A stretch of DNA of 64,000 nucleotides from Escherichia phage E26. Made by a program: the position numbers and the translations under genes. Positions 22,168-22,788 of the stretch are shown piece by piece. Numbering within the stretch: position 1 is the stretch's first letter; every line of letters starts with the position of its first letter. The stretch lies in the sequence record MN655998.1; one strand, written 5' to 3'. Under the pieces are notes generated by a model, which was given only the letters and a program-made list of their open reading frames with translations, did no database searches and was not told the DNA's origin.

Positions 22168-22302
22168 AATTCACCTCTTATAGATTAGGACGTTCGTCAT
22201 TAATTTTACCAACCAAAACACCATAGAGTTTATCAGGTTGGACTTTACGATTCTTATTGATTGTAGCACGGAATAGACGAGCTACGCTATCTTTATTTTT
22301 CA

Positions 22303-22788
22303 TTAGTTGATACCTAAGCCAATGAAAATAGGTTGGTCTTCTACATTACCCATCCCAACACTAAGTCGATTTACTTCTAAAAACTGCAATACGCTGTCAG
22401 TAAATCCGCGCATGGTAGTATCTAGGATAAAAATTGTTTTGTCAAGACTACGACCTCGCCATGTGATCGGATTCAGGAAAGTTCGGATCGACGTACAATC
22501 TACATTTGAAATATTGACGTTTTCACCGCGACCGCGATCTCGGATCGTTTTGGCATGTCCCCGCGTCGTTGAAACGATAAAGACACTATAGCCTTTTCGC
22601 GTATAATGGTCATATAACTTGATTGTAGCGTCTGTATGCCCTGTCTGACGGCCTAAATTGATTGAGACGATGGAATCTAGGTCATCAGCAAAATTGCGTC
22701 GTTTACGGCGTTCTATGATGCCATTTACGGCAGAAATACACGCAGCATAAATCAAATCTTTACTTTCTAATTTTACATCAATATTCAT
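22303..22788 (-). CDS. hypothetical protein
   Basis: ORF with ATG at 22788 and GGAGAC RBS. Confidence 0.5.
   Translation of the reverse strand: MNIDVKLESKDLIYAACISAVNGIIERRKRRNFADDLDSIVSINLGRQTGHTDATIKLYDHYTRKGYSVFIVSTTRGHAKTIRDRGRGENVNISNVDCTSIRTFLNPITWRGRSLDKTIFILDTTMRGFTDSVLQFLEVNRLSVGMGNVEDQPIFIGLGIN

Follow-up and report, generated by a model that had tools for sequence, protein, structure and literature searches.

In the DNA of Escherichia phage E26 that was analyzed here (a stretch of 64,000 nucleotides, referred to as the window, to which all otherwise unspecified positions apply), the leftward genes vs.8 and vs.6 are separated by 135 nt (22168..22302). The question raised by this locus is whether the gap is a mere spacer or carries a gene of its own and, in the latter case, what kind of product such a gene encodes. 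An earlier note, made from the sequence alone, had placed a 41-codon lysine-rich frame at 22180-22303, opening in a TAATG overlap with the stop codon of the upstream gene, ending just before the ribosome-binding site of the downstream GrcA-like gene and filling a 135-nt gap. Such a frame is indeed present on the minus strand: an ATG codon (22303..22301) is followed by 41 sense codons (translated in the window copy as MKNKDSVARLFRATINKNRKVQPDKLYGVLVGKINDERPNL) and by a TAA stop codon at 22180..22178. Only the left coordinate had to be corrected, as the stop codon begins with position 22180 and the full open reading frame (ORF), stop included, spans 22178..22303. The other particulars held: the TAA of vs.8 (22305..22303) shares one base with the ATG of the small ORF, the gap has the size given, and the hexamer GAGGTG (22172..22177, minus strand), which serves as the Shine-Dalgarno sequence of vs.6 and is separated by four bases from its ATG (22167), lies directly 3' of the small-ORF stop. 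With 6 Lys and 4 Arg among its 41 residues, the product is also fairly described as lysine-rich. Taken as a whole, the locus is best explained by a genuine gene for a strongly basic 41-residue microprotein, a reading to which we assign a probability of approximately 0.8.

Gene neighborhood and prior annotation

The gene upstream of the small ORF, vs.8 (22303..22788, minus strand), encodes a 161-aa protein that belongs to phrog_1488, has no Pfam match, and shows a weak likeness to Vs.8 of phage T4 (26% over 105 aa). The downstream gene, vs.6 (21751..22167, minus strand), codes for a 138-aa GrcA-like autonomous glycyl-radical protein (Pfam Gly_radical, E 1.5e-16) that is 58% identical to T4 Vs.6. 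The string is closed after vs.6 by an intrinsic-terminator-like hairpin with a T-run (21717..21741, minus strand), which is annotated as a terminator in related phages, so that the leftward polycistronic order reads M15 endolysin, vs.8, small ORF, vs.6, terminator. A GC-rich hairpin (AACGGGGAGA ... TCTCCCCGTT; 22805..22837, minus strand), which has no T-run, is found between the endolysin stop and the vs.8 start; it could represent an RNA stability or processing element or a part of a PeSL-type cassette.

Over 1.15 kb, the region shares 97-99% identity with its counterparts in the RB49-like phages (Krischvirus, T4-type coliphages). In RB49, the gene order is endolysin, vs.8, p100, vs.6, nrdC.11, and the counterpart of the small ORF, RB49p100 (NP_891671.1, annotated as "hypothetical protein"), is located between vs.8 and vs.6, has the same length of 41 aa, and is 95% identical. 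This coding sequence, also listed as phi1p100, EpJSE_00103, and under further tags, is annotated in nearly every Krischvirus record. In addition, the whole product aligns with phrog_13848 ("unknown function"), its residues 1-41 covering all 41 positions of the profile (E 4.1e-28, 98.2 bits). The small ORF, RB49p100, and phrog_13848 are one and the same gene, and the gene call is therefore not new. Beyond that, comparisons of the product with Pfam, NCBIfam, and PADLOC gave no family match, and a sequence search of the PDB returned a single chance-level match (MCM8, E 1.1). A literature search on the motif described below and on the locus tags found no publication, and a search for ribosome profiling or proteomics evidence of small-ORF expression found none.

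The block of vs.8, small ORF, and vs.6 is flanked in Krischvirus by variable homing-endonuclease insertions (22851..23240 and 20966..21664 in the window, minus strand; loci L012-L025 and L029). Upstream of the block, a 576-nt HNH/AP2 endonuclease gene replaces the endolysin gene in G2248, JK32, JSE, Whisky, and FL04. Downstream of vs.6, an HNH gene is found in G37-3, FL20, JK32, JSE, and L029, with nrdC.11 occupying this place in the window and in RB49.

The place between vs.8 and vs.6, a neighborhood that is conserved in T4-type phages, is taken in T4 by vs.7 (NP_049731.1), whose product consists of 109 aa, as opposed to 41 aa for the small ORF, and has no sequence relationship to it. BLASTP and family profile searches against T4 Vs.7 and all frames of the 60-67.5-kb region of T4 (from tk to nudE, including the vs genes) found no match, the best score being 3.9 bits. 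The idea that the small ORF is a remnant of vs.7 was rejected for this lack of similarity; it is a positional replacement of vs.7 and not its orthologue.

Conservation in Krischvirus and in a divergent syntenic phage

The existence of an open frame carries little weight by itself. The chance of encountering no stop in 40 codons is 0.078 at the composition of the window and 0.041 in shuffles of the segment itself, and of all ATG codons in the window, approximately 28% start frames that are 41 or more codons long. An open frame alone is thus unconvincing, and the case for a real gene rests on comparative evidence.

The peptide was detected by tblastn in all 58 Krischvirus records, with 88-95% identity. 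For a closer look, 18 Krischvirus database records, the most divergent ones having been chosen deliberately, were read directly, along with the metagenomic loci L035 and L036. Conservation of the frame in relatives, which the earlier note had proposed as a check, was found in nearly all of them: the 41 codons are kept in both metagenomic loci and in 16 of the 18 records, which retain the overlap with vs.8 as well. The junction itself (TAATG, 22301..22305, minus strand) is kept in all relatives that were read, including L036, where the vs.8 stop codon is now TGA and the overlap reads TGATG. The two exceptions both involve single bases. In G2248, the loss of one A from the A5 run that follows the ATG shifts the frame at codon 3 and leaves a 6-codon frame (the record has no coding sequence there), and in FL04 an additional T in codon 40/41 extends the frame by 13 codons into vs.6. 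Such indels suggest sequencing error or dispensability of the gene rather than a non-coding spacer. The window copy is set apart from all other Krischvirus copies read by two residues, Leu10 (Arg elsewhere) and Asn40 (Asp elsewhere), whose codons are located at 22274 and 22186 (minus strand), respectively.

Krischvirus shows little variation here (12 codons vary, 7 of them in the encoded amino acid); within these limits, the pN/pS ratio (Nei-Gojobori) is 0.26 for the small-ORF frame versus 0.64 and 6.1 for the other two frames, and 0.18 for vs.8. The vs.6 gene was left out as a control, its value being unreliable owing to an internal indel in the 137-aa variants. In the codons for KLYGVLVGK, only silent changes are seen within the genus (pS 0.11, pN 0).

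An exhaustive profile search additionally recovered P0019, a 39-aa protein encoded on contig L029, which represents a divergent syntenic phage with the gene order M15 peptidase, Vs.8 (45% identical), 39-aa ORF, Gly_radical protein (Vs.6, 74% identical), HNH, and RlaP. Its junction, AACTAATGAAAAA, is the same as in the window, and its peptide, MKKTAKLFWQKVKETRKQQPAKMYGVLVGKTNKEVKHGI, is approximately 40% identical to that of the window. The small ORF of this phage extends 11 nt beyond the vs.6 ATG.

The LYGVLVG family in phages and plasmids

Homologs of the small-ORF product form a family, defined in this analysis and referred to as the LYGVLVG family, of 34-57-aa proteins with an N-block, [ST]-[VIT]-A-[KR]-x-F-[RI] ... 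R-[KR], and a C-block, [KN]-[LM]-[YF]-G-V-L-[VAI]-G. Both blocks align in all branches, and the Krischvirus small ORF falls within this definition.

In Felixounavirus, the family is represented by a 35-codon ORF (MSNNSIAKKFRASYLNRRKNKVCEKLYGVLVGKQD) with a GAGGAG Shine-Dalgarno sequence in the spacer between the genes for tRNA-Leu(caa) and tRNA-Arg(acg). This ORF was found in at least 33 records and is unannotated in most of them (L003, 293..400, corresponding to approximately 28071..28178 of FelixO1, NC_005282; also L008 and L009). The ORF, stop codon included, reaches 8-9 nt into the annotated tRNA-Arg gene and hence overlaps the first bases of that tRNA. The Jedunavirus member, gp49 of Klebsiella phage KB2, consists of 34 aa (MSSVAKKFRMRVTAHRKGKSPVKLYGVLVGFGEG) and is encoded by the first gene before terS. 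Another 34-aa member comes from a metagenomic phage, where it lies directly 3' of the tRNA-Arg(tct) gene in a large tRNA array. Another T4-type phage (locus L028, 812..985) encodes a 57-aa member, P0021, after uvsY and uvsY.-1, with an acidic tail, ...DERPDLITEDWFYGG; for the neighbors of this gene, no Pfam or PADLOC assignment was obtained. In RB43, the 28-aa ORF231w (L033, 919..1005) corresponds only to the acidic C-terminal tail of P0021 and appears, from this alignment, to be a truncated relic.

The family is also found outside phages. Members of 50-54 aa that terminate in ...TARAFRQRVKARRAEQGRSNQQPEKLYGVLVG, directly followed by the stop codon, are encoded on an Erwinia contig and in small mobilizable plasmids of the ColE1 type (ColRNAI_rep_cluster_1987), approximately 35 of which were found in E. 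coli, Klebsiella, and Salmonella. The plasmid homolog, which has a hairpin after it, is located approximately 160 nt from RNAI (Rfam, 103.6 bits). Among the plasmids, three loci were examined for rom (L010, 1538..1689; L026, 1718..1870, minus strand; and L027, 1426..1578, minus strand), and none was found. The homolog in these three loci converges with a pair of genes for proteins of 172 aa and 187-189 aa, and a scan of this pair in L026 gave no Pfam or PADLOC match.

The link between the phage and plasmid branches was seen in profile searches. A profile constructed solely from phage sequences finds the plasmid proteins at 30-34 bits (E 0.002-0.04, calculated for 1.8e9 proteins), the two blocks of the motif being aligned; across the plasmid, L029, and L028 members, its scores are 30-37 bits. 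Each of the 18 family members tested matched phrog_13848, the Felixounavirus, Jedunavirus, and plasmid relatives among them scoring at E values of up to 0.01. The exhaustive profile search retrieved only proteins of 34-69 aa; with nothing longer than 69 aa found in the two large protein searches, the small-ORF peptide is not a domain of some bigger protein. One match, in a Bacillota metagenome-assembled genome (L011), consisted only of the string PDKLYGVLV inside a junk ORF and was treated as a chance match.

In the eight-codon core of the motif, the lineages differ pairwise at 4-6 of the 24 nucleotides, and all of these differences are synonymous. This is the strongest single argument for selection on the peptide itself. 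The family moves horizontally among the mobile elements of Enterobacteriaceae. The neighboring genes differ in every lineage, and no gene is common to all contexts, which suggests an autonomous accessory gene whose action is on the host.

The unequal lengths of the family members bear on an alternative explanation, namely, that the Krischvirus ORF is the functionless, truncated relic of a longer gene that, like that of P0021, coded for 57 aa including an extended acidic tail. In favor of such decay, (N)DERPDL at the Krischvirus C-terminus matches the residues with which the acidic tail of P0021 begins, RB43 keeps only the tail, and the indels in G2248 and FL04 would also be expected of a decaying gene. 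However, most members of the family are 34-41 aa long and end soon after LYGVLVG, the plasmid form exactly there, so that the short form is better seen as the common functional unit. As purifying selection is still visible within Krischvirus, decay is an unlikely explanation of the locus, and a functional gene for a short basic protein remains the preferred one.

Translation and coupling to the neighboring genes

The overlap of the vs.8 stop and the small-ORF start is conserved in all Krischvirus loci that were read and in L029. The Shine-Dalgarno sequence of the small ORF itself is weak, consisting of AGGT (22312..22315, minus strand) within the last codons of vs.8, with an 8-nt spacer to the ATG (it is annotated as a ribosome-binding site in Ec_Makalu_001); the free-standing homologs in other phages are preceded by GAGGAG, AGGTGA, or GGAAGG. 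Read from this arrangement, the small ORF is probably translationally coupled to vs.8. Ribosomes that finish vs.8 at the UAAUG would restart there, and this would be the main route to translation of the small ORF. Those that end the small ORF would then halt on the Shine-Dalgarno sequence of vs.6. Together, the restart site and the position of the small-ORF stop on the vs.6 Shine-Dalgarno sequence lead us to propose a translational chain of three genes.

A hairpin that buries the AUG start codon is predicted in the window and was considered as a coupling device, but it does not exceed shuffled sequences in stability and L029 lacks it, which leaves a coupling mechanism based on structure without support. 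A sigma-70-like site inside vs.8 (22417..22445, minus strand; TTGACA, a 17-nt spacer, and GATACT), 114 nt 5' of the small-ORF ATG, could allow expression that is independent of vs.8; sites of this kind occur at chance frequency around the locus. A late promoter was also considered and rejected, as the sequence TATAAATA is absent near the locus.

The tight packing of the three genes could also mean that translation of the small ORF merely passes ribosomes from vs.8 to the start of vs.6, with the peptide itself being functionless. Both ends of the ORF are overlapped or abutted, by the UAAUG upstream and by the vs.6 Shine-Dalgarno sequence at the stop, and the L029 ORF runs past the vs.6 ATG. Nevertheless, the peptide is conserved where neither vs.8 nor vs.6 is present (in tRNA arrays, upstream of terS, after uvsY, and beside ColE1 RNAI), an eight-residue motif that stays invariant through synonymous change is not expected of a relay, and vs.6 owns a strong Shine-Dalgarno sequence of its own. 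A role of this kind without a functional peptide is quite improbable.

There is even less reason to consider the frame fortuitous. If the gap held only the ribosome-binding region of vs.6 and the ORF had been called mechanically, the odds of 0.04-0.08 for an open frame and the abundance of ATG codons that open frames of this length would pose no obstacle, the label "hypothetical protein" would reflect automatic annotation, and the absence of a call in G2248 would come as no surprise. However, a chance frame would not encode a peptide that is conserved, with silent-only differences in its core, across phages and plasmids whose DNA is otherwise unrelated. The low pN/pS value is specific to the small-ORF frame, and the frame is kept in the divergent L029; a chance frame is accordingly very hard to maintain. 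The weakest alternative, a structured RNA or tRNA-derived element in place of a protein gene, was brought up by the first weak tblastn matches outside the genus, which are listed under "tRNA-Arg" features of FelixO1-like phages, but it can be dismissed: these matches sit in the spacer before tRNA-Arg and touch the tRNA by one base, the substitutions follow a codon pattern, no covarying structure is seen to be conserved across lineages, ARAGORN predicted no tRNA or tmRNA genes in the window, Rfam offered nothing credible (a single match to the U54 snoRNA on the other strand, E 4.6), and the region folds no more stably than its shuffles (z 0.09). The small ORF is, in our estimate, very probably a real translated gene.

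Composition and possible function of the product

The window product has a net charge of +6 and a pI of 10.4 and consists of a basic N-terminal helix (approximately residues 6-20), the invariant KLYGVLVG (residues 25-32), and a short NDERPNL tail. The same layout is found throughout the family, with an amphipathic N-terminal helix rich in Arg and Lys (S-[VI]-A-[KR]-x-F-R ... R-[KR]), a short linker, often with proline, the invariant hydrophobic (K)LYGVLVG, and a tail that ranges from none to 26 residues. The net charge is between +5 and +9 in all branches except for the acidic-tailed 57-aa form, where it is 0; in the part that precedes the motif, it is between +3 and +7 in every branch. AlphaFold2, run on an 18-sequence alignment, predicted a single helix (residues 7-18), with low confidence (pLDDT 66, pTM 0.28); a model of this quality is too weak to serve as a query in fold comparisons.

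Composition and genomic context allow some suggestions as to what the peptide might do. It may be an accessory factor that works autonomously and targets the host, in which the basic Arg/Lys helix would contact a nucleic acid, such as RNA, while the hydrophobic, invariant segment would dock, by strand addition, onto a conserved partner or onto a second copy of the peptide. Binding of RNA or other nucleic acids can be offered as a tentative assignment of its activity. Because the genes occur within the tRNA arrays of phages and next to RNAI in rom-less plasmids, structured RNA would be the most attractive target, although this is a weak reading of the gene contexts. A more specific and distinctly doubtful proposal is that the LYGVLVG microprotein is an effector shared by phages and plasmids whose binding partner is structured RNA (tRNA-like hairpins, RNAI/RNAII) or else an RNA-associated factor conserved in enterobacteria, acting as a Rom-like copy-number modulator in rom-less ColE1-type plasmids and as a tRNA- or translation-linked takeover or anti-defense factor in lytic phages.

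Comparison with previously described small proteins provides analogies rather than relatives. Rom (Rop), the 63-aa modulator of the RNAI-RNAII complex of ColE1 plasmids, is likewise a small plasmid protein whose gene lies close to the region controlling ColE1-type replication. It forms an acidic four-helix-bundle dimer, and there is no sequence similarity between Rom/Rop and the plasmid family member; a Rom-like role of the latter would be speculation by analogy. The arginine-rich RNA-binding (ARM) peptides, such as the N-terminus of the lambda N protein, contain a short helical segment of approximately 15 residues rich in Arg and Lys, comparable to ARAFRQRVKARRAEQGR in the plasmid form. This likeness is one of composition only, and the ARM peptides are devoid of the invariant hydrophobic LYGVLVG segment of the family.

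T4 Stp is a 26-aa peptide that modulates the EcoprrI/PrrC restriction system. Similarly to the small ORF, whose presumed action is likewise on the host, it is a very small phage peptide spread over unrelated phage groups, and its C-terminus, ...GVFGRQ, bears a superficial likeness to the LYGVLVG motif. Homology was rejected, as the family profile scores -1.1 bits on Stp (the sequence of which was verified in T-even genomes), and tblastn with Stp gave no match in Krischvirus or Felixounavirus. This search did reveal matches to the N-terminal 18-19 residues of T4 Stp, 58-78% identical and mostly unannotated, in siphoviruses of 41-50 kb (LHE71, HC6, S192, Sa179lw, and others); Stp-like peptides may thus be more widespread than is apparent from their annotation.

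Implications

With regard to genome annotation, the analysis confirms that what lies between vs.8 and vs.6 in RB49-type phages is a real gene rather than spacer DNA, and the homologous ORF has been left unannotated in many Felixounavirus records and in the records of some ColE1-type plasmids. The gene itself is already catalogued as hypothetical, and its spread across phage lineages and ColE1 plasmids is a modest curiosity. A peptide of approximately 35 residues nevertheless keeps an invariant eight-residue motif through synonymous change in at least four phage lineages and in small mobilizable plasmids of Enterobacteriaceae. The distribution of the family, together with its invariant motif, suggests a conserved host target, which, once found, would add one microprotein to the short list of characterized effectors of mobile elements.
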